DNA of 64,000 nucleotides, from assembly GCA_035687895.1 (NCBI GenBank), contig DASRUE010000196.1:1489-65488 (forward strand). Reading direction: 5' to 3'. The translations under genes and the position numbers were made by a program. Of this stretch, positions 26,077-45,488 are shown in pieces; the stretch's first letter is position 1; each line of letters begins with the position of its first letter. Under the pieces are notes generated by a model. It ran no database searches. It was given only the letters and a program-made list of their open reading frames with translations, and was not told the DNA's origin. This DNA is from Bacteroidota bacterium. GTDB lineage: Bacteria; Bacteroidota; Ignavibacteria; UBA10030; UBA6906.

Positions 26077-26143
26077 ACCATCCGGTTGACCGAATAACCG
26101 AGACACTTTGCTTTCGCAAACATATCCACGGAGAATCGGATCT

Positions 26144-28411
26144 ATGGCTTTTCTGGACTCTGTTTTTGCCCCTGCCGGTCGTCTCTTGATCATTGTCTCC
26201 TGTTGGTGTTGCTTTACAACTCAAATCGTTGCCCAGACCTCTGGCTCCATTCGTGGGAAGGTGACCGATAAGAAAACCGGCGACTCACTTCCTTTCGCCA
26301 ATGTCGTTGTGAAAGGGACAAACGCCGGAGCATCAACGAATATAGACGGCTCATTCGAGATCCGCGGTCTTGAACCCGGCACCTACACGATTGTGGTTTC
26401 CCTGGTGGGCCATGAAACCCGGCAGATTACAGGACTGAAAGTAACCGCCGGTGATGCCACGACTCAGGACGTGTCGCTTGGTGATGCCAGTGTTCAAGTG
26501 GGTGACATCACCGTATATGGGGCGTCATTAAGAGGAGAAAAAGTAACGGATGCCCCGGCCGCCGTCTCCGCTCTTTCGCCCGAGGAGATCAAACTGAACT
26601 CAGTTAGCGGCCAGGTGCCGAAGCTTCTCGAGAACCAGCCGGGGGTGGATATTGCGCAGAGCGGTGTGAACGACTTCAATGTAAACACGCGGGGCTTTAA
26701 CAGCTCGCTTAATCGCCGTCTTCTTGTATTGCTTGATGGCAGAGACCTTGCTGTGGCGTTTCTCGGTTCGCAGGAGTGGAACGGTCTTTCCGTTCCCGTC
26801 GAGGATCTTGGCAAACTCGAACTTATCCGTGGTCCGGGCTCCGCCCTTTATGGTGCCAATGCCTTCAACGGGGTCATTAACATTCTCACGCCGCGCCCCA
26901 GAGATATCGCCGGCGGCAAAGTGACGATAGCGGGTGGAGAGAAAAACACCGCCAGGACTGACATTCGTTACGCAGGCTTCAGCGACGCATGGTCGTACAA
27001 GGTCAACGTGGGAAGATTCCAGGGTGACACCTGGAGTGTCTCAAGGACAATGTGGACTGGTGGTCAGATCGGTGTTTTCGAGTACTCCGGTTTCAATCCA
27101 GTTCTGAATATGGAGGTCGTGGAGGTCAACCGTGGAAAGGTCGCATCGACGTATGGTTCCGGTCGTCTGGACTACGCCTTTGCTGATGGCGCAAACGGCA
27201 CGATTGAAGGAGGACTCACGCAGGTGGAAAACGAAATCCTAGTGACCGGCATTGGGCGGGTGCAGGTGCCGAAGGCGGTGAAGTCTTGGGGGCGCGCAAG
27301 TTACAGCGATGAGCATGTGTTTGTGCAGGCATGGGTGGCGGGGAGAAATTCGTTGAAGCCGCAGGTGTCGCTGTCAACAGGCCTACCTCTCGAGGAGAAA
27401 TCATTGTTAGGCCAGGCGGATGTGCAATACCGGTTTTCTGAACTCGAAGACAGACTCTATGTCATCCTGGGAGCCGCACACAAGTATCAGTTCGTTGACA
27501 CGAAAGGAACGCTGACCTTGGCGGCGCATCACGACAATCTCAGTGGTCTTTACGGGCAGTTCGAATACAAGGTAACCGATCAAATAAAGGCAATTGCCGC
27601 CGGACGGTGGGATCGCAGCACTCTTCACGCCAGCCAGTTCTCACCAAAGGTAGCGATGGTGTGGTCGCCATTCGTAGGACAGTCATTCCGCGCAACGTAC
27701 AACAAGGCATTCCAGGCTCCAAACTATTCAGAGCTGTTCCTGAATGTAAAACACCCGATTCGTAATCTCGTCTATTTCGGGAATGAGGATCTGATTGTTG
27801 AGAAGATCACGGGGTATGAAGTGGGGTACAAGGGTGTATTTGAGAACGCTGTGTTCGTGACCTTGGATGGCTATTATAACCAGCTGACGGACTTCATCAC
27901 AGATTTGGCGCCGAGTGTCAACCCTAAATACCCAGGTCAAATCACATTGCCTGGAGAAACCATTACCCGAACAGTATGGTCCTATGGAAATGCTGGCAAG
28001 GTGAATGAATACGGGTTCGAGCTGGGAGTCAACTATTACGTCTCATCTGAGTGGCAGTTGAATGCCAACTATGCGTTCTTCGACTTCAAGGTGAAGGAGC
28101 AAAGCGCGAATGACGTTCTTCTTCCCAACGCCCCAAAGCACAAGGTGAACGGCGGAATCACGTACAGGAATGACACGTTCGAGTTCGGCCTGAGCGGAAA
28201 GTACGTTCCCCGGTTCGATTGGGCGGCGGGGATCTTCAAAGGACCGATTCTAGCGTATGCACTGTTTAACCTGAATGCGTCCTACAAGTTGGCCCAAAAC
28301 CTCACCCTGGGTTTGAATATTACAGACCTGCTGGATCGTGAACACTATCAGATCTTCGGTGGCTCGTTGATCGGTAGAAGAGCGATCATGAGCATGACAG
28401 CGACATTCTAA
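26144..28411 (+). CDS. TonB-dependent outer-membrane receptor with an N-terminal carboxypeptidase-regulatory-like domain
   Basis: It has a signal peptide, then a CarbopepD-reg-like domain (GKVTD...NIDGSFEIRGLEPGTYTIVVS), a plug domain, a beta-barrel and a C-terminal aromatic residue. Confidence 0.85.
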   Translation: MAFLDSVFAPAGRLLIIVSCWCCFTTQIVAQTSGSIRGKVTDKKTGDSLPFANVVVKGTNAGASTNIDGSFEIRGLEPGTYTIVVSLVGHETRQITGLKVTAGDATTQDVSLGDASVQVGDITVYGASLRGEKVTDAPAAVSALSPEEIKLNSVSGQVPKLLENQPGVDIAQSGVNDFNVNTRGFNSSLNRRLLVLLDGRDLAVAFLGSQEWNGLSVPVEDLGKLELIRGPGSALYGANAFNGVINILTPRPRDIAGGKVTIAGGEKNTARTDIRYAGFSDAWSYKVNVGRFQGDTWSVSRTMWTGGQIGVFEYSGFNPVLNMEVVEVNRGKVASTYGSGRLDYAFADGANGTIEGGLTQVENEILVTGIGRVQVPKAVKSWGRASYSDEHVFVQAWVAGRNSLKPQVSLSTGLPLEEKSLLGQADVQYRFSELEDRLYVILGAAHKYQFVDTKGTLTLAAHHDNLSGLYGQFEYKVTDQIKAIAAGRWDRSTLHASQFSPKVAMVWSPFVGQSFRATYNKAFQAPNYSELFLNVKHPIRNLVYFGNEDLIVEKITGYEVGYKGVFENAVFVTLDGYYNQLTDFITDLAPSVNPKYPGQITLPGETITRTVWSYGNAGKVNEYGFELGVNYYVSSEWQLNANYAFFDFKVKEQSANDVLLPNAPKHKVNGGITYRNDTFEFGLSGKYVPRFDWAAGIFKGPILAYALFNLNASYKLAQNLTLGLNITDLLDREHYQIFGGSLIGRRAIMSMTATF

Positions 28412-28434
28412 GGGGAGACAAACGAAAAACAAAG

Positions 28435-28472
28435 AAGGCAAGTCGGGTTCTCCGGCTTGCCTTCGTGTTTTT
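28435..28472. terminator. Bidirectional rho-independent terminator between convergent genes
   Basis: An AAGGCAAG...CTTGCCTT stem is flanked by T-runs on both strands. Confidence 0.6.
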
Positions 28473-28483
28473 ACCGCCCGACC

Positions 28484-28807
28484 CTACGCGTTCATTCCGA
28501 GCTTTTTCTTTGCCTCGTCAGACATCCTTACGGGGGACCATGCAGGTTCCCACACAATTCTCACGTCTGCGTCCTTCACGCCGGGGACCTTTAGTACCCG
28601 GTTTCGGACGTTTTGTGAGATCATCCCACTCATCCCACAGCCAGGGGAGGTCAATGTCATTTTCACACCCACCCAGTCGTCAATGATCTTCACATCATAG
28701 ATAAGGCCCAAATCCACGAGATTCACTGGGATCTCAGGGTCGTAGCACTCCTTGAGCGCGTCCATGATCTCCGTTTCAGTGGGGATTGTCGTTTTCGGTT
28801 CTTCCAT
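28484..28807 (-). CDS. SufT/MIP18-family (DUF59) Fe-S cluster assembly protein
   Basis: The sequence is ALKECYDPEIPVNLVDLGLIYDV...LTSPGCGMSGM, which has the conserved DUF59 cysteine. Confidence 0.7.
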   Translation of the reverse strand: MEEPKTTIPTETEIMDALKECYDPEIPVNLVDLGLIYDVKIIDDWVGVKMTLTSPGCGMSGMISQNVRNRVLKVPGVKDADVRIVWEPAWSPVRMSDEAKKKLGMNA

Positions 28808-28868
28808 TGCTGCTCCTTCGATGTTCACCTGTTTAAAGATAGCCTTTCACTGGGGGAGTTGCAACTCA

Positions 28869-29363
28869 TCATTGCTTGTGCCGGGGGAACCAGAGTTCCC
28901 TTAAAATAAGATAGCCCATCACACAATAACAAACAAACAGAGACACGCCCGAGAGAAGTACAAGCCAACTAAACAGGGGCGAAACAAAGCGGATTAGCAC
29001 GATCCCGCCAAATGTTGTCACTACTGCAATGAAGGGTTCAACGATGAGGAACTTCTTCACACCATCCGAGACAAGAGAGGAAAAATAGAAAATCCCCCCC
29101 AGGGCGAGGAACACCAGAGAAAGAGAAAGGATGTGGTTGTGAAGGAAGACATACATCTCATTGGCCGATTTGGCATACTTCATCTCCTGGATGGTTTGCA
29201 CATTTGCGGAGCCGAGGAATTGCTCCTGTATCCCTTGCGATGACAGGGACGTCGTATGCTCGACGAAGAAGAGTCCGATAAGATAGCCAGCGCTCATCAC
29301 CGCGATGAACAAAGTGAGAAAGAGCTTGAGCGTAGCATCGGCCTCTCGCAATCGGAATGTCAT
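28869..29363 (-). CDS. Hypothetical 4-TM inner-membrane protein
   Basis: It has four hydrophobic helices. An ATGA overlap with the upstream FMN-binding gene places them in one operon. Confidence 0.55.
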   Translation of the reverse strand: MTFRLREADATLKLFLTLFIAVMSAGYLIGLFFVEHTTSLSSQGIQEQFLGSANVQTIQEMKYAKSANEMYVFLHNHILSLSLVFLALGGIFYFSSLVSDGVKKFLIVEPFIAVVTTFGGIVLIRFVSPLFSWLVLLSGVSLFVCYCVMGYLILRELWFPRHKQ

Positions 29364-29968
29364 TGTGTCTCCAATGGTGTGTGAGGCAGGCGATCCCTAA
29401 CCGCTGCCAACACGGAAAGGACCTTCTTGACGCCAAACGTCACCGACCGAGCCGAAATCGTTGCGCCGCTGATATTCTTGATTTCCTTGCCTGGGCGGAG
29501 TTCCTCGCCCGGTCTTCTTCCGAAGAACTGCTTCTGCCATGATTTATAGCGCACTTCTCCGCCGTACGCTTCCCGATAGGCGAGAATTTCAAGATCCTTC
29601 ACCACGAGAGAGGAGTCAACAGCCACGATATACGTAATCAGTTGATCCTTCCCTTTGACATTGTCCACCACAGCATATCCCGCGGCAGCGTTTCCTTTGA
29701 ACGATGCGAGAACAACGAGCGTATCCCCTCCCCACCGTTGATTGCAAAGAATAAAGACCGCCTCTTTGTCTTGAGACAAAAGGGGGATGGTGACCAACAC
29801 TGCCTTGGTTTCCTTTCCAAACATTCGCTGAACGGACGCCTGTGCCTGGTCCAATTCACGTTCGGTGACTCCCACATCTGGCCATGCAGCGATGGAGAGA
29901 AACATTGCGGCAACCGCAAGGGTCGCTGCTCGTGTGATGCCCTTAGAAAAAATAATAGCCGATGCCAA
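29360..29968 (-). CDS. FMN-binding domain (FMN_bind) protein, predicted periplasmic, with a flavinylation motif
   Basis: It has a signal peptide. NISGATISARSV matches the [S/T]GA[S/T] covalent-FMN motif of NqrC, RnfG and PplA. Confidence 0.7.
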   Translation of the reverse strand: MASAIIFSKGITRAATLAVAAMFLSIAAWPDVGVTERELDQAQASVQRMFGKETKAVLVTIPLLSQDKEAVFILCNQRWGGDTLVVLASFKGNAAAGYAVVDNVKGKDQLITYIVAVDSSLVVKDLEILAYREAYGGEVRYKSWQKQFFGRRPGEELRPGKEIKNISGATISARSVTFGVKKVLSVLAAVRDRLPHTPLETQ

Positions 29969-31061
29969 GATTCAATTGCCTGGTGTTTTTGAAGCTGCCG
30001 GAATTCAATTCGTTGTTCATGAATGTGTAATCAAACTTGAAAGCTGTGTTGAATGTGGGTTTGTATGTCAACCCGAATACGATATCACTCCGGTTGTATT
30101 GCTTGAAGGGTTCAAAACCGGTCGTGGCAGCCTGGGTGTTGTACTTCTCGTATCGCCCGAAGAAGTTCAGTTCCTCTTCGGAGTCCGGGCAAAGCAAAGG
30201 AAGCACATTGTACGAGCCTTCGACGTAGTAGCCGTAAATCCGATCCGCGACAGCGGCATTAAACTGCGCGTTGATCTTGTCTGCATCTCCGATTGTACCA
30301 ATTGCACCAACAGCACGAAGTGCGAACCCATCGACAGAATACCTCACGTCACCGGACCAGAGTGAAACCATGGCGTCTCCGATGCTATCCAGATCAGCCG
30401 AGGAATTGCCGACAAAAAAAGAGCCGCCTAAGAAGAGTCCAAGGCATGGGGAATAGTCCAGTCGACCAGTGAAGGATGGATTTGCCGGGTTGCTTTCGAA
30501 TGCCCTCTGCCGCCCGTTACGCAACCCATTGCTTCCGCTGAACCCATCCGCCCTGAACCCAGCAACCACATAGAGTTGATAGTTGAGCCCTTCAACTAGG
30601 TTGCCGTACAGACCCGCTCCCGATTCTCTCCACGTGGTAGGGATTATTACTCGATCGACGCTTGGTCGCTCCACGCCGTTGAACGTGGGTGGTTCGTGAT
30701 AGGTGTTGATCAGGCCAACAGGGGGGAGGATGATACCTGCCCGGATACCGAAGGATCGGTTGATCTGATAGTCAAGAAATGCTTGTTCGATGGACAATTC
30801 CCCGCCGTCTGGATTTCCTGCTTCAATCAAGGTATGTTCGATCTCGAGCTCAGACCTGAACGCGAGTTTCTCGTTGAAATTGTGACCGAGATAGAGGACG
30901 AACCGGTGAAAATCCAGCATTCCGCGTCGATGTCCATCGGGTTCATTGTAGTGAAGTTCGCCGTAGCCACCGAGGCTTGTTTTGGGTTCACCCTGAGAGA
31001 AAGTTGATGCGGATATCAAGATCACGACTCCAACAAGAGCCAGAGCTGAGCGCAAGAACAT
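29943..31061 (-). CDS. Outer-membrane beta-barrel protein (porin-like), hypothetical
   Basis: It has a signal peptide and alternating beta-strand amphipathicity. The C-terminus ...LNLGIGYYFF ends in Phe. Confidence 0.55.
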   Translation of the reverse strand: MFLRSALALVGVVILISASTFSQGEPKTSLGGYGELHYNEPDGHRRGMLDFHRFVLYLGHNFNEKLAFRSELEIEHTLIEAGNPDGGELSIEQAFLDYQINRSFGIRAGIILPPVGLINTYHEPPTFNGVERPSVDRVIIPTTWRESGAGLYGNLVEGLNYQLYVVAGFRADGFSGSNGLRNGRQRAFESNPANPSFTGRLDYSPCLGLFLGGSFFVGNSSADLDSIGDAMVSLWSGDVRYSVDGFALRAVGAIGTIGDADKINAQFNAAVADRIYGYYVEGSYNVLPLLCPDSEEELNFFGRYEKYNTQAATTGFEPFKQYNRSDIVFGLTYKPTFNTAFKFDYTFMNNELNSGSFKNTRQLNLGIGYYFF

Positions 31062-31230
31062 GACTACCCCATGATTGATGTGGATGTGATTCTTACACTT
31101 CCACATCTTGCCTTAACAAACCGAGGCACCTTCGCTATACTGACATAGAAAAGGGACGCGTTGCCACGCAACGTGGAAGCCTTTTTCGTTTTCGGAGCGT
31201 GCCCATCATTAGCCTTTTGCCGAGGTCCCG

Positions 31231-31464
31231 CTATGCGGGTGAGAGCACGCTCCGTTTTTTTAAGCCAGACTCTTCCTTACAAAATTCCGATTTCTTGTCT
31301 GCAATGGTGTCTTCTTTGATTCGCTCAATGACTGTAGAGGAACAGCCACAGTCATGACCGCAGGCGCGAAGGCGTGCCCGGCGTCGTTTTCGAACCTCGG
31401 ATCGCAGGAGAATCACTCCGCTGATGAACACGATTCCTAATGATGCGATTTGTTGCCAGTCCAT
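31231..31464 (-). CDS. FeoB-associated Cys-rich membrane peptide
   Basis: One TM helix is followed by a basic stretch and CGHDCGC. It sits immediately downstream of feoB. Confidence 0.5.
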   Translation of the reverse strand: MDWQQIASLGIVFISGVILLRSEVRKRRRARLRACGHDCGCSSTVIERIKEDTIADKKSEFCKEESGLKKRSVLSPA

Positions 31465-33585
31465 TTATCCTCCCAATCCTATGTACAGGCCGATTCTGTA
31501 AACGACGAATGTCACCGAGTAGGCAAGGGTGGTCATATACCCGATCTGGAACAGAGGCCATTTCCAGCCATTGGTTTCTCGTCGCATGACAGCGACCGTC
31601 GACATACACTGCATGGCAAGAACGTAATACACCATTAGACAGATCGCTGTGAGAACCGTGAAAGTCGGCGCACCAGTGGCCGGATCTCGATCCTGTTGCA
31701 TCTGCTGGCGGAGCGAGACACTCCCCTCATTCTCGTCCGCATTCTGGATGTTGTAGATAGTTCCCATGGTACTGACAAACACCTCTCGTTGGAGGATCGA
31801 TCCGACAAGTCCAATGCCGATTCTCCAGTCAAACCCGAGAGGTTTGATCAGGGGTTCGATAAGGTGTCCCGCTTGTCCGGCAAGACTGTGCTTCAGTTGT
31901 TCCGCAGCAGAGACATTATCAAGTCTCGGGTAGCTTGCGAGAAACCATAGGATGATAGAGACACCAAGAATGAATGTTCCGGCACGCTTCAGAAAAAGCC
32001 AGGATCGCTCCCACATCTGCAACAGCACCGACCTGAGTGACGGAAGTCGGTAAGGCGGAAGCTCCATAATGAAGATCGGTGGTGCACTCCGAAGCAAAGT
32101 CTTCTTGAACAACCAAGCCATGGCGAGCGCTGCAACGAGTCCGAGCAAGTACATGGAAACCATAGTAATGCCCGCGAGGGAGAAAATTCCCAGCACGTTT
32201 GTGTTCGGAATAAACGCCGCAATCAAAAGCGTGTACACAGGGAGTCGGGCGCTGCAACTGATCAGAGGGGAGACCAGCATGGTCACCAGCCGATCTTTGG
32301 GGTTTTCAATTGTCCGCGTGGCCATGATGCCGGGAATTGCACAAGCAAAGGAACTGAGCATGGGGATAAATGATTTCCCGTGCAACCCTACCTTGCTCAT
32401 GAGCCTGTCCATAATGAAGGCAGCCCGCGACATGTATCCGGTGTCCTCCAGGAGTCCGAGGAACAAGAAGAGGAAGAGAATCTGTGGCAGAAACGTTACA
32501 ACCGCTGCCACCCCCGCAATGGCTCCATTCACGGTCAGGTCTTGAAGGTCTCCCGGTGGTATCAGGGCGGTGACCTGTTGGCCAACCCAATCAAAACCAT
32601 TCCCAATTAGCTCCATTGGGGCATTTGCCCATGTGAAGATGGTTTGGAAGACGACTGTCATCAGGCCAAGGAAGATGAAGAACCCCCAAATTCGGTGCGT
32701 CACAAAACGGTCAATTTTGTCACTGGTGCCCATCTTACTCCGAGCAGTCTGCTTTGTTGAAGCAGCGCAAATGAGCTTTATCCACTCATAGCGTGATTCC
32801 ACAAATACAGACTGGCGATCGAAGCCAAGGAAGTCGAGCTTCTGGTGATCCCGCTTCACATGCTCTCGAACCTCAGGGTCAAACCGATCCATGTGGTCAA
32901 GCAAATCACTTTGCGAGGTCAGAAGAAGGATCGCGTCGTGGAATGCCTGCTGGTCGGCGAGTTGGTGCCTATTTCGAAGGATGCTGACAAGTTCCTCGGT
33001 TTCCTTGTGAACAGCATCCGGCAGTTGCCATTGCCGCGGTTTACTTGTTGCGTTAGTCGTGCGCAGCATCGCGTCTTTCAGTTCCGAGATTCCGATTCCT
33101 TTGTTTGCGATGATTGATACAACGCGAACGCCCAGTTCCCGCTCAAGTCGTTTCACGTCAATTTCAATGCCTAACTCCTCCGCGAGATCAATCATGGTCA
33201 AAGCGACTATAACGGGAAGATGCCTGTCGATTATCTGGCTGACGAGGTAGAGATTGCGTTCGAGGTTGGTGGCATCGACGACGCAGACAACGAGGTCGGG
33301 AGCGGGAGTATGAACAACGCGGCCGAGAAGGACATCAGTGGCAACTTTTTCGTCCGGAGAGTTGGCAGTCAAACTGTATGTGCCAGGGAGATCCAGGATG
33401 GAAGCACTGACACCATTTTCGAAGATGACTCTTCCCTCTTTCTTCTCCACAGTAACCCCGGGGTAGTTCCCTACCTTCTGTCGAAGACCGGTGAGTTCAT
33501 TAAAGAGGGTGGTTTTCCCGCAATTCGGGTTTCCGATCAAAGCAATGTTTTTGCTGTGAACTGCAGTCTGAACGGATCCCATCAA
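31465..33585 (-). CDS. feoB: Ferrous iron transporter B
   Basis: It has an N-terminal G-domain (ALIGNPNCGKTTLFN) and a C-terminal polytopic permease. It is 706 aa. Confidence 0.9.
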   Translation of the reverse strand: MMGSVQTAVHSKNIALIGNPNCGKTTLFNELTGLRQKVGNYPGVTVEKKEGRVIFENGVSASILDLPGTYSLTANSPDEKVATDVLLGRVVHTPAPDLVVCVVDATNLERNLYLVSQIIDRHLPVIVALTMIDLAEELGIEIDVKRLERELGVRVVSIIANKGIGISELKDAMLRTTNATSKPRQWQLPDAVHKETEELVSILRNRHQLADQQAFHDAILLLTSQSDLLDHMDRFDPEVREHVKRDHQKLDFLGFDRQSVFVESRYEWIKLICAASTKQTARSKMGTSDKIDRFVTHRIWGFFIFLGLMTVVFQTIFTWANAPMELIGNGFDWVGQQVTALIPPGDLQDLTVNGAIAGVAAVVTFLPQILFLFLFLGLLEDTGYMSRAAFIMDRLMSKVGLHGKSFIPMLSSFACAIPGIMATRTIENPKDRLVTMLVSPLISCSARLPVYTLLIAAFIPNTNVLGIFSLAGITMVSMYLLGLVAALAMAWLFKKTLLRSAPPIFIMELPPYRLPSLRSVLLQMWERSWLFLKRAGTFILGVSIILWFLASYPRLDNVSAAEQLKHSLAGQAGHLIEPLIKPLGFDWRIGIGLVGSILQREVFVSTMGTIYNIQNADENEGSVSLRQQMQQDRDPATGAPTFTVLTAICLMVYYVLAMQCMSTVAVMRRETNGWKWPLFQIGYMTTLAYSVTFVVYRIGLYIGLGG

Positions 33586-33833
33586 TGGGTCGCCTTCAAA
33601 ATTATTACAGACTCTGCTTCTAGTCTTCTCATAGAGAGTCTATATCCTCTGACGCGCACTTCGATCGGATCTCCCATGGGGGCCACCCTTACCAATTCGA
33701 CTAGAGTTCCCCTTATGAGACCCATCTCGAGCAGCCGTTGCTTTAAAGCAGAACCCACTGTGTTGATTCGGGAGACTGTTCCTCGTTCCCCCGGGATCAT
33801 GGTGTCTAGTTGGACCTCAATGGTCGATTCCAT
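33582..33833 (-). CDS. feoA: FeoA family protein
   Basis: It has an SH3-like FeoA motif (GERGTVSRI...GLIRGTLVELVRVAPMGDPIEVRVRGYRLSMR). It overlaps the feoB start. Confidence 0.8.
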   Translation of the reverse strand: MESTIEVQLDTMIPGERGTVSRINTVGSALKQRLLEMGLIRGTLVELVRVAPMGDPIEVRVRGYRLSMRRLEAESVIILKATH

Positions 33834-33845
33834 GGTTCTCTACTA

Positions 33846-34082
33846 CTAAAAAGTGAATACGGAGATAGTGCTTGCCAGCAGGTTGTTGATCCCAAGCCGG
33901 GTGTTACAGACTTCGCAAATCACGTTGCCGTTACCCCTATTGAGACAGCGAATGACGGCATTTTCACAAAATCCAAGTTCACGAAGTCGTATACAGACGT
34001 CGGGGTGCGATTGGATTTCCCTAATGCGGACAGGGCGCCCAAGAGGTGCGTTAGCAAGCGTGAATGACGAACTTGGGTTCAT
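33846..34082 (-). CDS. feoA: Second FeoA family protein (tandem paralog)
   Basis: The sequence is LGRPVRIREI...LRELGFCENAVIRCLNRGNGNVICEVCNTRLGI. The start was set to the internal ATG (MNPSSS) 4 nt after the fur stop. Confidence 0.7.
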   Translation of the reverse strand: MNPSSSFTLANAPLGRPVRIREIQSHPDVCIRLRELGFCENAVIRCLNRGNGNVICEVCNTRLGINNLLASTISVFTF

Positions 34083-34086
34083 ATCG

Positions 34087-34530
34087 CTATGCTCTCTTCT
34101 TACATTTGGAACAGATTCCAAAAATCTGAAGTGTTGAACTTTGTGCCTTGAAACTCTTCTCGTCGCACACATCATCTTGAATCCGCTCGAGTTTTTCGTT
34201 TACGAATTCGATAATGTCTCCACAGTCCAGGCAAATAAGATGGTGGTGATGCGGACGCCCGAAGGCTTTCTCGTATCGAGATGTATTTTCGGCAAACCTG
34301 TACTTGGAGACGAGGCCGCATTCCTGAAGCACCTCCAGAGTATTGTATACAGTTGCCTTAGAGACTTTGATGCCATTCGTGATTAACCGGTAGTAGAGTC
34401 CCTCGACATCAAAGTGTCCCTGGCTTTCCAATACTGCGTCTAAGATCGCAAAACGCTCGGGAGTCGAGCGCTGCTTTCCGCTTGCCTTCAGATGGGTTGT
34501 GAGTATCTCGTGCGCTGCGTGAACGTCCAT
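34087..34530 (-). CDS. fur: Fur family transcriptional regulator
   Basis: It has a winged-helix N-terminus, HHHHLICLDCG, and C-terminal CxxC metal sites. Confidence 0.85.
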   Translation of the reverse strand: MDVHAAHEILTTHLKASGKQRSTPERFAILDAVLESQGHFDVEGLYYRLITNGIKVSKATVYNTLEVLQECGLVSKYRFAENTSRYEKAFGRPHHHHLICLDCGDIIEFVNEKLERIQDDVCDEKSFKAQSSTLQIFGICSKCKKRA

Positions 34531-34560
34531 GGCTCCTCTTATTTAGAATTAGTCTAAATA

Positions 34561-34589
34561 AAAATAAGCACAAATATCCAAGTTGTCAA
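34561..34589 (-). promoter_or_regulatory. Promoter for fur-feo operon: TTGACA-N17-TATTTT on the minus strand, AT-rich, possible Fur operator overlap
   Basis: The reverse complement reads cTTGACAacttggatatttgtgctTATTTT. It lies about 25 nt upstream of the fur ATG in a divergent AT-rich intergenic region. Confidence 0.45.
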
Positions 34590-34662
34590 GAGAGAAGTTA
34601 GAAATAGATTTGACATGTATCGAAAACAGTGTGAAAAATCTCTGGAAATTTGCAGATTTTGC

Positions 34663-34690
34663 TTGCTTATTTCGTCCGGATTAGTATATT
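34663..34690 (+). promoter_or_regulatory. Candidate promoter TTGCTT-N16-TATATT for the DHS-like gene
   Basis: It has a perfect -10. It is divergent from the fur promoter. Confidence 0.35.
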
Positions 34691-34736
34691 TTCACCGGGC
34701 AAACGGTTAGTCCCCTTCTTCTAATTCTTAGTATGA

Positions 34737-35837
34737 ATGAAGTCTCCTAAAGCCAACCTTCTCAGCGGCAGACGAATAATCAGGGCTCCTATTCCCAAGA
34801 ACATCCCAATTGTGAAATTGGTTGATGAGTACTTCCAGGCCTACAATGGAGGCAGACTGCGAGAAGCTTGCCAGTTGTTCTCTACAAAGATGCTCGCGAG
34901 AGATGTAACCGTGGGTATGAGTATTACTGGTGCACTTACGCCGGCCGGGCTCGGATCGTGCATAGTTCCTCTGATAAGAGCGGGATTTGTGGATTGGATC
35001 GTTAGCACGGGGGCCAACCTTTACCACGACACTCACTTCGCAATTGGCCACACCCTTCACCGCGGCTCGCCATTTCTCGATGATCGAGTCCTGCGCAAGG
35101 AAGGAGTGATTAGGATATATGACATTCTCTTCGATTATGAAGTTCTGCTGAGCACGGATGAGTTCTTCAGGACTGTTCTTCGCAACGAAGAGTTCCAGAA
35201 AGAAATGGGGACGGCCGAGCTACACTATAAGCTTGGTAAATATGTCCTTGAGCGCGAGAGAGTATTACGTATCAGGCATAGCAGTGTGCTAGCAACCGCG
35301 TACCGATGCGGTGTGCCGGTTTACACCCCTTCGCCGGGTGATAGCTCTATAGGAATGAATATAGCTGAGATTGAGTTATCTGGATATAGGACGCGTCTAG
35401 ATGTTCTTCTTGATGTCAACGAAACAGCAGCCATTGTGCTAGACGCAAAGAAAAGGGGTGGGAGGAGTGGAGTGTTGATCTTCGGTGGTGGGTCACCAAA
35501 GAATTTCATTTTACAGACTGAACCTCAGATCCAAGAAGTGCTGAAGATCAACGAGAAAGGGCACGATTTCTTCTTGCAGGTTACCGATGCCCGACCCGAT
35601 ACGGGTGGTTTGTCAGGTGCGACCCCGTCAGAAGCAGTCAGTTGGGGAAAAGTGGATCCCGACAAGCTTCCTGATACCGTTGTGGCCTACCTTGATGCAA
35701 CGGTAGCCATGCCAATTTTGACCTCGTATGCCTTGGCAAGACGTAAACCTCGCCAACTTAAACGCCTGTACGATCGTCGAGCAGAGTCGTTGGAACGATT
35801 GAAACGTGAATACAAAAGAGTGAGCAAGAGTTCTTAG
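34737..35837 (+). CDS. Deoxyhypusine synthase-like protein
   Basis: The sequence is [13 protein letters not shown]...[16 protein letters not shown]...[12 protein letters not shown], a DHS-family Rossmann core. It is 366 aa. Confidence 0.7.
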
Positions 35838-35875: not shown

Positions 35876-36067
35876 ATGAGCAGGCTTCAGGAACTCAAGG
35901 ACTTGGTACAGTCTTTTGATAAAGACTTCGTAAAGTTCTATGAGAAGGGGAACAAGTCAGCCGGGACGCGCGTGCGGAAGGCCATGAATGAATTGAAGAA
36001 GAAGGCCCAAGAAATTAGAAAAGAAGTGCAGGAAATCAAGGCCCAAGCGAAAGAGGGTGGGGCCTGA
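35876..36067 (+). CDS. Histone H1-like nucleoid protein (Hc1 family)
   Basis: The sequence is FVKFYEKGNKSAGTRVRKAMNELKKKAQEIRKEVQEIKAQAKEG. It is small and basic, with an AAGGAG SD. Confidence 0.7.
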   Translation: MSRLQELKDLVQSFDKDFVKFYEKGNKSAGTRVRKAMNELKKKAQEIRKEVQEIKAQAKEGGA

Positions 36068-37322: not shown

Positions 37323-37703
37323 ATGAGAATCTTGGTTGTTGACGACAATAAGGGTTTCCTCAACGTCATGGGTGACTTGCTGCGCGACTATGGTTACGAG
37401 GTTTTTCTTGCGGAGGATGGAAAGCAGGCCCGGGAGTTCTTGGAAGGAGAGAAGGTCGACGTTATCGTATCCGATGTTTTTATGCCGACGCTTGACGGGA
37501 CTCGGTTCCACAGTTACGTTCGTGAGTTTACGGACTTTCAGGACATTCCTTTCATCTTCATCTCAGGGTACGATGACGAGCACACACGAAATGTAGTAGT
37601 TGATTCCAAGATCGATTTCTTCATCAGCAAAACAGCGCCGGTGGAGACGCTCGTATCTCTGATTGAAAGCCTGAAACCAACAAAGCAGCTAAAGTCCGTC
37701 TGA
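37323..37703 (+). CDS. Single-domain response regulator (PilH/PilG-like position at head of pilus cluster)
   Basis: It has ILVVDDNKGF and VIVSDVFMPTLDG. AGAAGG sits 6 nt upstream of the ATG. The tabled start is a TTG 6 nt upstream. Confidence 0.8.
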   Translation: MRILVVDDNKGFLNVMGDLLRDYGYEVFLAEDGKQAREFLEGEKVDVIVSDVFMPTLDGTRFHSYVREFTDFQDIPFIFISGYDDEHTRNVVVDSKIDFFISKTAPVETLVSLIESLKPTKQLKSV

Positions 37704-37755
37704 TACGCGCGTCATTCACTGTAGAAAACCAATCTTTGCCAAGGAGCGGAACACT

Positions 37756-39627
37756 GTGTCAATTTCGGGAAATGTACATCCCCTACAACGGCCCCTCGAG
37801 GATGAGGAAGCATCATCCGTGTCGTCACACCCAGCGAACGACACCATGTCGAACGGTGCTGGACAACCATTCATGTCCTCCTTCATGGAGCATTTGGTCC
37901 GATCCAAGATCGTGACTGAGGAAGTTGCACTTCGGGCGTCGGCATGGAAACACGAACAGAATGGACGCGGGAAGAAAAGCCTCGTGGAAATCCTTGCGGA
38001 TGAGTTCAGCGTTCCACGGGACATCCTATATAATGAAGTCGCTCACTTCTACTCCTTTCGCATGATCGACCTTAATGATCGGAATGCAAGGAGGCTACCT
38101 CCGTCGACGGTCAACAAACTTCTTGCTGGGCTTCCGGAGTCAATCTACCAACTGGCACTCAAGCACAAAGTTCTTCCATACGAAGTTCCCGAAAACCAGC
38201 CGGACAAAATGTTGGTCGTTACCCCCAACCCTTCTGATCGCGAAGTGTATGAAGTAGCACGTTCGTTCACCTACAAGAAGTTCGAAATATGTTACATGAA
38301 GGAGCGAGACTGGGCGGAGTTCTGGCGCCAGGTCACCTTGGATAAGCAGCAGGTTGTTAGTGGGCTCGGCGGCTCAGACTCGGTTTTTGAGGAAGAGGAT
38401 GCAGAGTTGGACTTGGTGCTGGATAAAGAGATCAACAGAAGCCAGTTGATTGCGCTGGTGGAAAATCTCTTCGCCGATGCTGTGCGTGTCGGTGCCAGTG
38501 ACATTCACATCATGCCTAAAGGAGCACGCAAGACGGTAGTCTCATTCAGACTTGACGGAAGGTTGACTGAGTGGTACACGATTGAGGATGCTCGCGCAGA
38601 AGCCGTAGTTGCGGTTGTTAAAGGCAGGGGGTTGAACCTCGACAGGTTTGAGCGTATGGCCGCCCAGGATGGCTCGGCGCAGAAGGTTATCGATAATCAA
38701 GTGGTCAGGTTTCGCATTTCGATTATTCCAGTTGTCTCGCGTGAGCTGTCCGGCAAGTTCGAATCCGTCGTGATCCGCATTTTGAAGGACGCGGACGCAT
38801 CCGTTACCCTGGAGGCAATCGGTTTCGATCCCTACTCATTGAAGGTTTTCGGTGAGGCGATCGCGAAACCGCATGGCATGGTAATTCTAACGGGACCAAC
38901 GGGGAGCGGAAAAAGCACGACACTCGTTGCTGCGCTTCGGTCCGTGATGCATCCATCACGTAATACTATTACAGTCGAAGACCCAGTGGAATATCTGCTT
39001 GAAGGAGCGCGGCAGGTAAAGCTGAACCATAAACTCAATTTCGATGATGCCTTGCGCGCGATCCTTCGTCACGATCCTGACATTGTGATGGTGGGAGAGA
39101 TCCGTGATCGAATTACCGCAGATCTTGCCATCAAGCTTGCAAATACCGGCCATCTGACATTTTCGACCCTGCACACGAATGACGCGCCAAGCGCTGTCTC
39201 GCGGCTTTTCAAAATAGGTGTGGAACCCTTTCTTCTTGCTCAGGCACTAAATATTGTAGTTGCGCAACGTCTTGTCCGAAAACTCTGTGAAAAGTGCAAA
39301 CAGCCTGTTTCACAGGTGAGCGATATGCTTCTCGCAAAGACAGGATTTACGCAGGAAGAGGCAGAGACAACAACGTTTTACCGGGCAGTGGGATGTATCA
39401 ATTGCGTTGGTGGGTTCAAGGGCCGTACTGCGATTCACGAGTCGCTGTATGTGACGCAAGAAGTCCGAGACATTATCCTTGAGAGTGGAGACAAGATCGA
39501 CGTTAACGCCATCCGTGATACGGCTGTGGCCCACGGCATGCAGACGCTTCGACAGTCTGGTATTGAATTGGTGAAGAGTGGCATCACTACAATGGATGAG
39601 ATCATCAGTGGCACCACAAACGACTGA
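37756..39627 (+). CDS. pilB: GspE/PilB-family secretion ATPase (type IV pilus extension ATPase-like), copy 1
   Basis: It has the Walker A LTGPTGSGKSTTL, the Asp and His boxes, and a tetracysteine CxxC...CxxC. Its N-terminal GSPII_E_N region carries MshEN-like repeats. It uses a GTG start, with AAGGAG 9 nt upstream. Confidence 0.85.
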   Translation: MSISGNVHPLQRPLEDEEASSVSSHPANDTMSNGAGQPFMSSFMEHLVRSKIVTEEVALRASAWKHEQNGRGKKSLVEILADEFSVPRDILYNEVAHFYSFRMIDLNDRNARRLPPSTVNKLLAGLPESIYQLALKHKVLPYEVPENQPDKMLVVTPNPSDREVYEVARSFTYKKFEICYMKERDWAEFWRQVTLDKQQVVSGLGGSDSVFEEEDAELDLVLDKEINRSQLIALVENLFADAVRVGASDIHIMPKGARKTVVSFRLDGRLTEWYTIEDARAEAVVAVVKGRGLNLDRFERMAAQDGSAQKVIDNQVVRFRISIIPVVSRELSGKFESVVIRILKDADASVTLEAIGFDPYSLKVFGEAIAKPHGMVILTGPTGSGKSTTLVAALRSVMHPSRNTITVEDPVEYLLEGARQVKLNHKLNFDDALRAILRHDPDIVMVGEIRDRITADLAIKLANTGHLTFSTLHTNDAPSAVSRLFKIGVEPFLLAQALNIVVAQRLVRKLCEKCKQPVSQVSDMLLAKTGFTQEEAETTTFYRAVGCINCVGGFKGRTAIHESLYVTQEVRDIILESGDKIDVNAIRDTAVAHGMQTLRQSGIELVKSGITTMDEIISGTTND

Positions 39628-39850
39628 TTCGTTAAAGTTCGTCATTACAATAGGTATCGGAAATTCTGACTCTCGTCCAGTTACTTTTACCACAAGCATC
39701 CAAAACCCACACCAGAAAGCCTGTTTTGACGGTCGCTCAATGAATTCTAATTCTGGCATGGCGCTTGGGACATTCTGTTGCACAAACACAAATGAATACA
39801 AACAACTAACTCCCACATTTAATCACATTCACCAATAAAGGAGCTCCACC

Positions 39851-40243
39851 ATGGGACAGCAGCAACTTTTGTTAATCATCCTTGGCGTCATCGTTGTCGG
39901 TATCGCAGTGGCGGTCGGCATCACGATGTTCCAGGATAACGCAGTGTCGGCGAACCGCGATGCGGTCACGAACGATCTCGTGAACCTCGCCTCACGTGCG
40001 CAACAGTACTATCGTCGTCCGACGGCGTTGGGTGGCGGCCAGGGTGACTTTGACGGTCTGACCCTCGTAAAGCTGACCTCCAAGTCAATCAATGCAAACG
40101 GTTCATACGGGCTGACCTCGGCAGCAGGCCAGACAGCTGTTATCGAAGGATATGGCACGGAGAATGGCAATGACGGTTCGACGGTGATTCATCTTACGAT
40201 GAACGTGCTTTCGGATAGCACGTACATTGTAGAAGTTAACTAA
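39851..40243 (+). CDS. Pilin-like protein with a non-canonical N-terminus (MGQQQLLLIILGVIVVGIAVAVG...), candidate major subunit
   Basis: It has a strong SD, AAAGGAG, and an N-terminal hydrophobic helix at residues 5-27. A terminator hairpin follows it. It lacks the G-F-T-L-I-E prepilin motif. Confidence 0.55.
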   Translation: MGQQQLLLIILGVIVVGIAVAVGITMFQDNAVSANRDAVTNDLVNLASRAQQYYRRPTALGGGQGDFDGLTLVKLTSKSINANGSYGLTSAAGQTAVIEGYGTENGNDGSTVIHLTMNVLSDSTYIVEVN

Positions 40244-40252
40244 CGCATGCTT

Positions 40253-40292
40253 GAACGGGCTTCCCTTGTCGGGGAGCCCGTTCACTATTTTC
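40253..40292 (+). terminator. Intrinsic terminator/attenuator between tandem pilin-like paralogs
   Basis: A GAACGGGCTTCCC-TTGTC-GGGGAGCCCGTTC stem-loop is followed by ACTATTTTCAC. Confidence 0.5.
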
Positions 40293-40308
40293 ACAAAACG
40301 GTAAAGCC

Positions 40309-40719
40309 ATGGGCACTCAACAGTTATTGCTAATCGTCGTCGGCGTCGTCCTCGTTGGAATCATGATTGCAGTGGGACTCTTCATGTTTCGGGACCAGGC
40401 GGCTGCCACGAACAGAGATGCGCTCACAAACGATCTGACACATCTTGCTTCGGCGGCACAGCAGCACTATCGGCGCCCAACGGTTTTTGGTGGTGGACAG
40501 AGGAGATTTACAGGTCTCACGTTGAGCAAGCTGACGACAAAACCCATCAACGCTAATGGGACGTACTCACTGTCTCCGGATCCAGTAACAGGAACACCGG
40601 CCTCGGTTCAGATTACCGGGATTGGGCGTGAAACTGGAATTGATGGGACTAATAAGGTCAAAGTTGTTGTGCTGGTATTCCCCGACAGCGTCTATGTAGA
40701 CGACTCCAACGGCAACTAG
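40309..40719 (+). CDS. Pilin-like protein, tandem paralog (MGTQQLLLIVVGVVLVGIMIAVG...)
   Basis: It shares the first-gene N-terminus and downstream motifs (NRDA.TNDL..LAS.AQQ.YRRPT..GGGQ..F.GLTL.KLT.K.INANG.Y.L). Confidence 0.55.
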   Translation: MGTQQLLLIVVGVVLVGIMIAVGLFMFRDQAAATNRDALTNDLTHLASAAQQHYRRPTVFGGGQRRFTGLTLSKLTTKPINANGTYSLSPDPVTGTPASVQITGIGRETGIDGTNKVKVVVLVFPDSVYVDDSNGN

Positions 40720-40796
40720 ACCGATGTTCGGAAGCAACAGTCTGAGCAACACAAAAAAGAGGATGTAGGAATCTAGACAGAGGATTAGTACAAACA

Positions 40797-40840
40797 GGGG
40801 GGAGTCGTAATAGGGGGTACCTCCCCTTGTTGGTTCGCTT
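40797..40840 (+). terminator. Candidate terminator hairpin
   Basis: A GGGGGGAG...CTCCCC stem is followed by TTGTTGGTT. Confidence 0.3.
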
Positions 40841-40960
40841 GTTTTGCTAGGTGGGGGATCTAGTAAGACGTCGGGCGATTCCAACGGGGGAGCTTACCCT
40901 TTACGTGTTCAATAGAGAGAGTGTGATACAGCGTACAATTTAACGTAAGAGGAATGCATC

Positions 40961-42340
40961 ATGGCAGAGTTCAGAATCGAAGGTGTCACTGCTGGTGGAA
41001 AACCGGTCCAAGGTATCCTGGAAGCGGACTCCACCCGGTCGGCCAAGCAGAAAGCAGCAGTCATGGCGCAGCAGCGAAAATTCAAGCTGTTGCATGTTGT
41101 TCCTCGCTCCACGTGGGTGTACAAAGTACAGCGCGGGACGGAGAAACCTGTAATTGGTGAGCAGAAAGCCTTCACCAAAGGAGAGGTTCAGGAAGCCCTT
41201 CAGAAAATGGGCTACCGTGTAATCCGAATTCAGAAGCGGCTCATCAACTTCAAAGCAAGACCGCCCGCTACTGAAATCGTGACCTTCGTGCGGGTGAGTG
41301 CGGACCTTATACGGCAGAAGCTTCCGTTCAATGAGATCATGCAGTTGCTGGTGAACGACATTCAGAACAGGACCCTGCGCGAGGCGATCAAGGATATCAA
41401 CGCCGAACTGAAACAGGGCAAAGACAGCGAGCGTGCGTTCATCAAGCACGAAGCAGTTCTCGGTCGGTTCACCGCCCACATGCTCGGCTTGGCCTCGAAG
41501 AGTGGTAACATGGCCGAAATCTATGACAGCACGGCGAAGTTTTTGGAGCGCCAGTCGGAATTTAAAAAGAACCTCAAGAGCGCGCTGATCATGCCCATTG
41601 TGACTCTCTTCGTTCTGTTCGGTGCGGTGGTTTACTATGTCGGATACATCTTTCCGGCGACTGCCAATTTGTTCCGGAAGTTTAATATTGAACTACCGCC
41701 AATGACCCGGGCAACGCTCGCGCTTAGCGATTTTCTGGTGGAGAACATTGTGATAATTCTCATCGGGACAATCATCCCCACCATTCTCGCAGTTCGTTTC
41801 TTCACGACGGAAAAGGGGCGTTTCATTCTTGATCGTTACATCTGGAAGGTCCCCGCAATGGGACAACTCCTCCATAAAATGAGTATCGAGATCTTCTGCC
41901 GGGTATTCTATGCCCTGTACAGTGGGGCGGGCGAGAATATCGAGGTCATCCGTATGGCATCTGAGGCATGCGGCAACAAGTACATGGAGCACCAAATCAA
42001 GACCATCGCACTTCCCCTGATGATTCAAAAAGGTGCGGGTATCACCGAAGCGTTCGAAGCGACGGGTGTCTTTACGAAAACTGCGATTTCGCGATTCCAC
42101 TCGGGAGCCGAGACAGGGACAGTAAAGAACACGGCCCTTCAGCTGGCGGAGTACTACGAGAAGGAAACGTCGTACAAAATGAGGAATGCGATTGACTATA
42201 TTCAGTTGATGATTTCGATGATCATCATGGTTGTGTTGACGGCCCTGACGATTGTGTCGTCCGAGACGGCGACCATTCGGCCCAAGAACCCGGCGCTGGG
42301 TCACGCCACAGTGCAGCACGCTGAAAAGTCCTTGACGTAA
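40961..42340 (+). CDS. pilC: Type IV pilus/T2SS platform protein (two T2SSF domains)
   Basis: It has duplicated GspF-like domains and three TM segments. It is 459 aa, with SD AAGAGGAA. Confidence 0.85.
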   Translation: MAEFRIEGVTAGGKPVQGILEADSTRSAKQKAAVMAQQRKFKLLHVVPRSTWVYKVQRGTEKPVIGEQKAFTKGEVQEALQKMGYRVIRIQKRLINFKARPPATEIVTFVRVSADLIRQKLPFNEIMQLLVNDIQNRTLREAIKDINAELKQGKDSERAFIKHEAVLGRFTAHMLGLASKSGNMAEIYDSTAKFLERQSEFKKNLKSALIMPIVTLFVLFGAVVYYVGYIFPATANLFRKFNIELPPMTRATLALSDFLVENIVIILIGTIIPTILAVRFFTTEKGRFILDRYIWKVPAMGQLLHKMSIEIFCRVFYALYSGAGENIEVIRMASEACGNKYMEHQIKTIALPLMIQKGAGITEAFEATGVFTKTAISRFHSGAETGTVKNTALQLAEYYEKETSYKMRNAIDYIQLMISMIIMVVLTALTIVSSETATIRPKNPALGHATVQHAEKSLT

Positions 42341-42376
42341 TGTGTGTCTATCCCCCAACAATGAACAGACAGCGCA

Positions 42377-44164: not shown

Positions 44165-44215
44165 CCCGATGGAATGTGCGAATACACTCGCTATCAGAAA
44201 CCTCCGGGGTGACGT

Positions 44216-44782
44216 ATGAACCTCGGTCAAAGCATGCTGGTCATTGGTGCAATATTGCTTCTGGGGATTCTTACCCTTAACGCCAACAGGACAGTGATGG
44301 AGACAAATGATGTAACAAATTCAAGCGAGTTCGGAATTGCCGCGGTGTCGCTGGCGACGTCTCTGGTTGAGGAGGCAATGGGGAAGATGTTCGATGAAGT
44401 TGTGGCTGACACGGTGCCTCCAACGATGGCTCTGTCGATTCTCTCGACTACCCTGCAGAAGGAATCAGGCGAGCGGTATCGCGGCGGCACAAACGACTTT
44501 GACGATATTGATGACTACAATAACCTGTTTGTAGTCTATACAAGCCCGAATGACATGAGCGCGGTTGCCGGTGCGGATACGATTCTCGTTGTTCCTGGGT
44601 TGAGAGCCAGATACTATGTGAGAGCAAGAGTCAACTACGTCAACAGTACAGCTCTTGATGACACCACTTCTGCGCGAACGTGGCACAAGAAGATCCGAGT
44701 GGAAGTCACGAGTCCCCGGATATTACCGATCGGGCAGGCACAGGATACACTCGTGTATCCGGCCGTAATGAGTTATTGGTGA
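44216..44782 (+). CDS. Pilin-like/minor-pilin candidate (N-terminal TM helix then L.N.NR motif)
   Basis: The N-terminus is MNLGQSMLVIGAILLLGILTLNANRT. It has no prepilin Gly-Phe/Glu5 motif. Confidence 0.4.
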   Translation: MNLGQSMLVIGAILLLGILTLNANRTVMETNDVTNSSEFGIAAVSLATSLVEEAMGKMFDEVVADTVPPTMALSILSTTLQKESGERYRGGTNDFDDIDDYNNLFVVYTSPNDMSAVAGADTILVVPGLRARYYVRARVNYVNSTALDDTTSARTWHKKIRVEVTSPRILPIGQAQDTLVYPAVMSYW

Positions 44783-44813
44783 GTATGAGAATCTGCCTTG
44801 TGGAAGGGATATC

Positions 44814-45437: not shown

Positions 45438-45488
45438 GCACCGGCGAATGATAGCAGGTTCTAGTTCTTCATCTAAGTAGGGGGATCT

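Follow-up and report, generated by a model that had tools for sequence, protein, structure and literature searches.

A predicted Fur-family-controlled ferrous iron locus that carries a porin, an exported flavoprotein and a four-helix membrane protein, with a candidate antisense small RNA gene in its widest gap

How Fe(II) is supplied to the permease FeoB, and how ferric iron is reduced in the Gram-negative periplasm, is largely unexplained, and a locus in a Bacteroidota bacterium of the class Ignavibacteria (assembly GCA_035687895.1, contig DASRUE010000196.1, positions 1,489 to 65,488) raises the question of whether three further proteins, encoded together with the Feo transporter, form a testable candidate for this role. 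Throughout, the window denotes the whole 64-kb stretch of DNA that was analysed. Within it, nine co-oriented open reading frames (ORFs) on the minus strand, from 34530 to 28484, follow one another in the order fur, feoA, feoA, feoB, a gene for a Cys-rich peptide, and genes for a porin, an FMN_bind protein (for flavin mononucleotide, FMN), a protein with four transmembrane helices (4-TM protein) and a DUF59 protein. We give roughly even chances to the reading that this is a locus repressed by a Fur-family regulator, in which the trio of porin, flavoprotein and 4-TM protein supplies reduced iron to the permease. The basis of this case is domain identification, structure prediction and synteny, and it is from these that we infer the redox direction, the electron source, the selectivity of the porin and the roles of the DUF59 protein and of a small RNA (sRNA) gene embedded in the locus. 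The nine genes are as follows.

34087..34530, minus strand: fur, a Fur-family regulator of 147 aa (PF01475, 109.5 bits)
33846..34082, minus strand: feoA copy 1 (PF04023, 42.3 bits), with a probable start at Met32 of the listed ORF
33582..33833, minus strand: feoA copy 2 (PF04023, 75.1 bits)
31465..33585, minus strand: feoB, 706 aa (TIGR00437, 555.9 bits against a cut-off of 315.65)
31231..31464, minus strand: gene for a small Cys-rich membrane protein of 77 aa, directly after feoB, composed of MDWQQ, a transmembrane (TM) helix, RKRRR and CGHDCGC
29943..31061, minus strand: gene for an outer-membrane porin of 372 aa including the signal peptide, with an OprP-like 16-strand fold and the C-terminus ...GIGYYFF
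29360..29968, minus strand: gene for an exported RnfG-like FMN_bind protein of 202 aa (PF04205, 30.2 bits against a cut-off of 22)
28869..29363, minus strand: gene for a four-helix inner-membrane protein of 164 aa, assigned to PF27139 (Aq_1264_TM) from tags on homologues
28484..28828, minus strand: gene for a DUF59/FeS_assembly_P protein (PF01883, 71 bits), with a likely start at ATG 28807, where a ribosome-binding site is found

A preliminary description of this DNA had proposed nine tightly packed minus-strand genes, and ORF listing, scans with hidden Markov models (HMMs) and measured spacing placed all nine where it had put them; the HMM check of domains that it had called for returned FMN_bind, FeoA, FeoB and DUF59 alike. 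With the start of feoA copy 1 taken at 34082, it lies ~4 nt from fur; the two feoA copies are 12 nt apart, feoA copy 2 overlaps feoB, and the spacing between feoB and the Cys-rich gene is 0 nt. Further downstream, the porin and FMN_bind genes overlap, as do the FMN_bind and 4-TM genes (by 4 nt). Only two intervals depart from this packing of 0–12 nt or overlap: 40–61 nt between the 4-TM and DUF59 genes, and ~169 nt from the Cys-rich gene to that for the porin, whose start was set at 31061 (Met16), where the signal peptide begins. The size given earlier for this wider gap (about 170 nt) was right, but the gap is not empty, as it holds what we read as a conserved antisense sRNA gene.

The upstream half of the operon encodes a Feo system. 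FeoB scored above the equivalog cut-off and contains FeoB_N (PF02421), two Gate domains (PF07670) and FeoB_C (PF07664), and two FeoA proteins, both above the PF04023 cut-off of 23 bits, are encoded next to it. For the Cys-rich peptide no Pfam or NCBIfam match was obtained even at E ≤ 1, including PF12669 (FeoB-associated Cys-rich membrane protein), the members of which it resembles in architecture, with an N-terminal TM helix and a CGxDCGC cluster encoded directly after feoB. The same position is occupied by a protein of the form MDWQQ-TM-basic-CGxDCGC in 11 loci.

The evidence that carries the case for iron supply is the conservation of the trio and of its surroundings. Using the 4-TM profile we collected 20 genome loci, all from Ignavibacteria or 'Bacteroidota' metagenome-assembled genomes (MAGs), which were compared by phmmer and to which several metagenome loci were added. 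The porin, FMN_bind and 4-TM genes are contiguous in 20/20 genome loci and in the further metagenome loci, down to 26–37 % identity of the 4-TM protein; the small membrane partner earlier proposed for the flavoprotein is encoded beside it in every trio locus. Each of the 15 loci in which the sequence reaches far enough upstream has fur ahead of the trio. From there to the porin gene, 10 of them contain feoA(A)B and the Cys-rich gene, and the other five (L014, L015, L017, L018 and L023) a full-length FTR1-FtrD-like fusion of 428 aa (L014:5825-7111 in the first of these), which joins PF03239 to the FtrD-like, Cys-rich PF10080. Operons of this FTR1-FtrD type also carry ApbE. Furthermore, in one metagenome contig (Ga0326597_10004577, our locus L077) the slot of the trio is taken by a gene for a TonB-dependent receptor with Plug and barrel domains (L077:3814-6213), the order there being fur, feoA, feoA, feoB, Cys-rich gene, sRNA gene, receptor gene and DUF59 gene. 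Such displacement in situ suggests functional equivalence between trio and receptor. That the trio is found beside two unrelated permeases, and can be swapped with an outer-membrane iron importer, is the strongest argument for regarding it as an iron-supply module.

Outside these operons the trio was seen standing alone in L034 and L026, and a related cluster was identified in Proteobacteria (L030, L031 and also L004), where a homologous porin gene (462 aa) is followed by genes for an FMN_bind protein, ApbE and an unrelated membrane protein of 165 aa. Homology between this porin and the one in the window is strongly indicated (hhalign probability 99.9 %, E 2e-35). The 165-aa protein was considered as a homologue of Aq_1264_TM and rejected (hhalign probability 0.3 %), leaving it a positional analogue only. 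Just upstream of the proteobacterial clusters lie both of the two 19-mers in L031 that match the Escherichia coli Fur-box consensus at ≥ 13/19 positions, and two of the four such 19-mers in L030, including the best of them (15/19).

L030:6256-6280: Fur-box-like site, upstream of the porin-FMN_bind-ApbE cluster
L031:5137-5161: Fur-box-like site, likewise upstream of such a cluster (the sites in the two loci match at 13–15/19 positions)

An outer-membrane channel had been anticipated in the operon, and the porin bears this out through its signal peptide and its predicted fold, which is that of a 16-strand OprP-type barrel. Against PF07396 (OprP/OprO) it scored 18.0 bits, below the gathering cut-off of 20.9, and some of its homologues carry the PF07396 tag in precomputed data; neither its sequence nor its profile matched anything in the PDB. 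With OprP and OprO, the phosphate-selective porins of Pseudomonas, it shares only 14 % identity. These porins possess an arginine ladder and a lysine cluster that confer phosphate selectivity, whereas the invariant residues of the family described here, which has > 5,000 homologues, are mostly Glu and His and include an alternating pattern, SExEIEH, in an N-terminal strand. Invariant columns dominated by Glu and His in place of an Arg ladder suggest selectivity for cations rather than anions, and we infer that the porin is a cation-selective pore, the charge mirror of the OprP ladder.

The flavoprotein is, by prediction, extracytosolic. Its N-terminal hydrophobic segment, AATLAVAAMFLSIAAW, was recognized by inspection, and the classical signal peptides of its homologues end in AQA or AFS. 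The flavinylation motif, earlier described as intact, reads ISGATIS and fits [S/T]GA[S/T], with Thr170 as the predicted flavin site; SGAT is invariant in 22 diverse FMN_bind homologues, down to 27 % identity. The closest solved relative of the FMN_bind profile is RnfG (9eri_G, E 8e-13, over near full length), with NqrC matched weakly. Although the fold and the covalent-FMN motif are common to RnfG, NqrC and this protein, the former two sit with rnf or nqr partners, whilst the constant partners here are the porin and the 4-TM protein. The rnfG NCBIfam models gave 20.7–26.5 bits against cut-offs of 102–230, and no rnf or nqr genes were present among the operon and the ~30 other ORFs scanned, which cover the window apart from ~15 kb at one end and ~10 kb at the other. 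Scores of ~25 bits against 102–230, together with these constant partners, argue that the protein belongs to no Rnf, Nqr or NosR complex; a grouping with NosR/RnfG-type complexes, which would have counted against the original proposal, was thus not found. A gene for ApbE (PF02424, E 2.4e-77) lies within the operon, after the 4-TM gene, in 9/20 related loci, and the lineage of the window has the operon without it. Pfam scans of the nine operon proteins revealed no PepSY_TM, MsrQ/DUF4405, NapH-like, DsbD or NqrB/RnfD domains.

For the 4-TM protein, the PF27139.1 tag was taken from precomputed data on homologues of 79–99 % identity; the model is missing from the local Pfam copy and there is no direct match. 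A full HMMER scan yielded 465 representatives of this family, across which only G51, H75 and H77 are invariant. The AlphaFold2 model is a four-helix bundle (predicted local distance difference test score of 80) and a PDB search with the 4-TM profile gave no match. According to the positive-inside rule, the HxH pair, which might bind haem, a metal or quinol, is predicted to lie at the periplasmic end of helix 2. Many more polar membrane residues are kept within the Ignavibacteria-like clade (H36, H75, N76, H77, E109-P110, R125 and C145), where the motifs are HNH, EP in helix 3 and Cys in helix 4.

The gene at the end of the operon had been named sufT, and this assignment failed. Its product scored 120.7 bits against TIGR03406 (cut-off 202.6) and 114 against TIGR02945 (cut-off 143.4), thus below both SufT cut-offs, and no suf genes adjoin it; as such, it is better called a DUF59 protein that resembles SufT. 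We found the gene in 13 loci.

With regard to control of the locus, the top NCBIfam matches of the regulator are Fur equivalogs, at 81–83 bits against cut-offs of 146–220, and the PerR model gave 73.5. The genomic link to feo or FTR1 and a conserved candidate operator favour a Fur function over that of PerR, Zur or Irr. Two elements were located upstream of fur, the first of which is the consensus promoter that had been predicted there.

34561..34589, minus strand: sigma-70-type fur promoter, TTGACA-17-TATTTT (read from 34589 to 34561), matching 10/12 consensus positions
34541..34559, no strand assigned: candidate Fur operator, a perfect inverted repeat, ATTTAGA-N5-TCTAAAT, directly downstream of the -10 box

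A TTGACA-like -35 element also precedes fur in most, not all, orthologous loci. The inverted repeat is kept upstream of fur in 15/15 of them whilst its flanks diverge, and it is present once in the 64-kb window, where a second copy was sought before the porin gene and the TonB-receptor gene and not found. In the distant, low-GC locus L026, with its stand-alone trio, a copy with 13/14 operator positions (ATTTAGA-TTAAA-TCTGAAT, L026:1176-1200) lies ~55 nt upstream of the trio.

The ~169-nt gap contains two elements on the strand opposite to the operon, which we read as a conserved cis-antisense sRNA gene of ~115 nt.

31113..31141, plus strand: candidate antisense sRNA promoter, TTAACA-17-TATACT (TTGACA-17-TATATT in most orthologues)
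31148..31261, plus strand: candidate sRNA of ~115 nt, with a 5' hairpin, a branched terminator hairpin and a U-run

In an intergenic alignment the hexamers of this promoter are nearly invariant in 12 loci. The terminator hairpin bears a conserved loop motif, CCUUUGCCGAGG, and the 3' end of the sRNA overlaps the final codons of the Cys-rich ORF. Folding of 31148-31261 gave a minimum free energy of -50.1 kcal/mol (z = -4.1). A covariance model built from five sequences matched the corresponding site in 11 other loci, on the same strand, and additionally L077 (62 bits) and L033 (34 bits), for at least 13 related loci in all; its top matches in L015, an FTR1-type locus, and in L019 were weak. Within the helices 86 % of alignment cells are paired, compared with 77 % in shuffles and 44–53 % in slid controls, and 23 pairs are changed on both sides against 11.8 expected (0/500 shuffles), counts that are biased in favour of the model, since it was used to fit the alignment. 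G-U pairs outnumber A-C pairs by 34 to 9, which favours the plus (antisense) strand. Read on the operon strand, the terminator hairpin has A-tracts on either side, and would therefore terminate the antisense transcript only.

No Rfam family matched within 28000-35000 at E ≤ 1, and the element is accordingly not a known riboswitch or sRNA. When metagenomes were searched with the pattern CCTTTGCCGAGG-N(4-34)-GCACGCTCC, 52 stretches were returned, of which L077 was the only real instance as judged by covariance-model score and context; the other 51 were set aside as chance matches on the same grounds. Trans targets complementary to the sRNA loop were no more frequent in the window than chance would allow (nine matches against 5.8 expected, not significant). 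A Bacteroidetes-type promoter (TAnnTTTG) on the operon strand of the gap was also considered and rejected, as the antisense sigma-70 promoter accounts far better for the conserved bases.

These elements can be assembled into a working model. Under iron sufficiency Fur would bind ATTTAGA-N5-TCTAAAT, which overlaps its own transcription start, and iron scarcity would free the operon. The two FeoA proteins, FeoB and the Cys-rich membrane protein would then bring Fe(II) across the inner membrane, with the trio acting as a separate, portable supply module of the outer membrane and periplasm. The OprP-fold porin, with invariant Glu and His residues that would face the pore where OprP has its arginine ladder, might let iron through as a cation or in another small form. 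FMN would be attached covalently to Thr170 of the RnfG-like protein by an ApbE whose gene lies elsewhere in the genome, and the protein, once flavinylated, would reduce Fe(III), or keep Fe(II) reduced, in the periplasm. Aq_1264_TM would dock this flavoprotein at the inner membrane and feed it electrons, most likely drawn from the quinol pool via a periplasmic-face site around the invariant HxH. In the cytoplasm, the DUF59 protein could take incoming iron for Fe-S assembly. Finally, the constitutively promoted antisense sRNA could base-pair with whatever transcript reads through the gap, so that expression of the feo half and that of the trio half would be uncoupled; it would probably set their ratio or stability. 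Of the iron-uptake proposal made in the preliminary description, the iron locus under a Fur-family regulator and the exported FMN_bind protein with its flavinylation motif survive in this model, and the SufT assignment does not. More tentatively, and with the balance somewhat against it, we consider that the trio may be a widespread, Fur-regulated and hitherto unrecognized assimilatory iron reductase of the diderm periplasm, fed by quinol through a cofactor-poor four-helix protein and serving FeoB or FTR1-FtrD, according to which permease the inner membrane has, with sRNA balancing of the operon halves in the Ignavibacteria-like lineage; Proteobacteria would on this account use a non-homologous small membrane protein in place of Aq_1264_TM.

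A number of observations weigh against reduced-iron supply by the trio. No ApbE was detected in the entire 64-kb window (hmmsearch at E ≤ 10), and the 4-TM protein has no recognized redox-cofactor motif beyond its invariant HxH; with both invariant histidines at the periplasmic face, it cannot alone relay electrons across the membrane. The DUF59 gene is missing from four loci with enough downstream sequence, and in L034 none of feo, fur and the DUF59 gene adjoins the trio. Pores of the OprP type are narrow and might exclude chelated Fe(III), and the presence of a putative antisense sRNA gene in the sole gap weakens the case for co-transcription of the two halves. In Proteobacteria, moreover, the L031 and L032 clusters are flanked by genes for di-haem cytochrome c peroxidase and cytochrome bd, neighbours with which a role in defence, as a guard against oxidants, also fits. 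On such an account the porin admits Fe(II) whilst the flavoprotein and its partner consume periplasmic oxidants (O2, H2O2) or another substrate, and co-regulation with iron import follows from the Fenton risk that an influx of Fe(II) raises. The capacity of the trio to stand alone without feo agrees with this, as does the narrow OprP-like fold, through which a free cation would pass more readily than a ferric chelate; yet the Ignavibacteria-like trio is always tied to fur and an iron permease and is replaceable by a TonB-dependent receptor, both of which speak for supply, and no peroxidase or oxidase gene is present in the operon of the window. We therefore hold the oxidant-consuming role to be rather unlikely. 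The redox chemistry could also run in the opposite direction, such that the flavoprotein takes electrons from Fe(II) as a ferroxidase partner and Fe(III) is passed to the permease, in the style of FtrB/FtrD or Fet3-Ftr1. For FTR1 systems (Fet3-Ftr1, FtrABCD) the accepted view is that transport is coupled to the oxidation of Fe(II), and in five loci the trio does follow an FTR1-FtrD-like fusion. Against this, FeoB, an Fe(II) transporter, is the partner in most loci including that of the window, and FMN at potentials like those of RnfG and NqrC is a poor oxidant of Fe(II), which together make an oxidative role very improbable. The poorest prospects of all are those of a respiratory or extracellular electron conduit, comparable to Listeria PplA/EetAB or to porin-cytochrome systems, for which the feo link would be lineage-specific synteny: the cluster has no genes for Ndh2, quinone biosynthesis or multihaem cytochromes, a single FMN cannot span the outer membrane, and Fur control and exchange with iron importers point to assimilation. 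Both the oxidative and the respiratory readings are less likely than the supply of reduced iron by the trio.

A separate issue is whether the nine genes form one operon or two transcription units, i.e. a fur-to-Cys half and a porin-to-DUF59 half, divided by the sRNA gene and its hairpins, with a promoter of its own for the trio. In favour of two units are the conserved, near-consensus antisense promoter and the terminator that fill the sole gap, the independence of the trio elsewhere, with its own operator in L026, and a weak hairpin with a T-rich tail on the operon strand (31173-31159). Nevertheless, the long hairpin on that strand is followed by an A-rich tract and not by a U-run, and so is not an intrinsic terminator there; neither a second operator nor a convincing operon-strand promoter is apparent in the gap; and the permease and porin genes of L017, L018 and L023 adjoin each other directly. 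On these grounds we judge two units to be less likely than one.

Beyond the last gene, the bidirectional terminator that had been predicted was recovered, and it separates the operon from a convergent gene for a TonB-dependent receptor.

28434..28464, both strands: bidirectional intrinsic terminator, a hairpin with a 14-bp stem (eight GC pairs) and T-runs on either strand
26108..28411, plus strand: convergent TonB-dependent receptor gene, with Plug and TonB_dep_Rec_b-barrel domains

This convergent receptor gene is syntenic in L007, L009 and L077. The GC content of the window is uniform (~0.47–0.54), the nearest database relatives are proteins of Ignavibacteria or 'Bacteroidota' MAGs, and the neighbours are housekeeping genes (YchF, a TPR protein, two-component systems, M16 peptidases and a deoxyhypusine-synthase-like gene). 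The last of these (34737-35837, plus strand) and a lysine-rich ORF of 63 aa (35876-36067, plus strand) are divergent from fur; their counterparts in related loci carry the tags PF01916 (DS) and PF07432 (Hc1 histone-like), and the synteny of the pair with the iron locus is kept across most relatives. Further along, a long same-strand cluster of type II secretion/type IV pilus genes occupies 37693-52020 on the plus strand, comprising three T2SSE ATPases, a T2SSF platform protein, a secretin and several ORFs without a Pfam match, and is followed by a gene for a Big_1/CarboxypepD_reg surface protein.

Cis-antisense RNAs have precedents at iron loci, namely RNA-beta in the fatDCBA-angRT operon of Vibrio anguillarum and IsrR in Synechocystis. 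The candidate sRNA described here resembles the former in being a small antisense transcript within an iron operon, where expression of the genes on its two sides could be uncoupled, and the latter, which lies opposite isiA, in being a cis-antisense RNA at an iron-related locus; it has no sequence relation to either. It would be, to our knowledge, the first iron-locus riboregulator proposed for the phylum, and a literature search returned no prior report. What had appeared to be the sole gap of the operon would thus be a regulatory element.

For the porin, the nearest published counterpart is 'psp', predicted in Geobacter metallireducens and Desulfuromonas (Rodionov et al., 2004; PMC545781), which is preceded by Fur boxes, was described as OprP-like and weakly similar to PF07396, has homologues in Aquifex and uncultured bacteria, and was proposed as a carrier of ferrous iron. 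This description matches our porin, and the Aquifex-derived name of PF27139, and the two porins may be homologous; unlike here, no neighbouring flavoprotein or 4-TM protein was reported for psp.

A link between flavinylated proteins and iron assimilation has already been proposed on bioinformatic grounds: Meheust et al. (2021, eLife; PMC8238504) connected extracytosolic proteins flavinylated by ApbE with this process, in clusters that combine P19/FTR1 with FMN_bind, or PepSY-like, MsrQ-like or DsbD systems with VIT1. The present locus agrees with these in having an extracytosolic FMN_bind protein, predicted to depend on ApbE, that adjoins an iron permease and for which uptake-aiding redox chemistry is predicted. 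It differs in its membrane partner, which is PF27139 rather than a PepSY, MsrQ, NapH, DsbD or NQR-like protein, in having an OprP-like porin as an obligate neighbour, and in lacking both P19 and VIT1; FeoB and porins are never mentioned in that study (0 occurrences each), nor is FeoB mentioned in PMC11334425. No paper that mentions Aq_1264 or PF27139 came up in full-text searches, and a search for the combination of feo, FMN_bind and porin found no description of the module. As such, we regard as new the putative module of OprP-like porin, RnfG-like protein and PF27139 protein and its link to FeoAB, together with its apparent exchange with an FTR1-FtrD permease and a TonB-dependent receptor, the lineage-specific candidate operator and the embedded candidate sRNA. 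These findings give a testable role to the uncharacterized PF27139 and to a porin family with > 5,000 members, and widen the known range of flavinylation by ApbE.

Two further systems invite comparison. An ApbE cluster of Caulobacter (PMC3751524), with a DUF2271 flavinylation target and no FMN_bind protein listed, belongs to the same general class and is Fur-regulated, as we predict for the present locus; otherwise the clusters are unrelated. In the extracellular electron transfer system of Listeria monocytogenes (PplA, FmnB/ApbE, EetA, EetB, Ndh2 and DmkA) ferric iron is likewise reduced by an extracytosolic protein with covalently bound flavin. The Listeria system belongs to a Gram-positive bacterium, serves respiration and has no link to Fur, and the locus described here has no Ndh2 or Dmk gene; in Listeria too, small membrane proteins without an obvious cofactor feed the flavoprotein, just as we propose that Aq_1264_TM may do.

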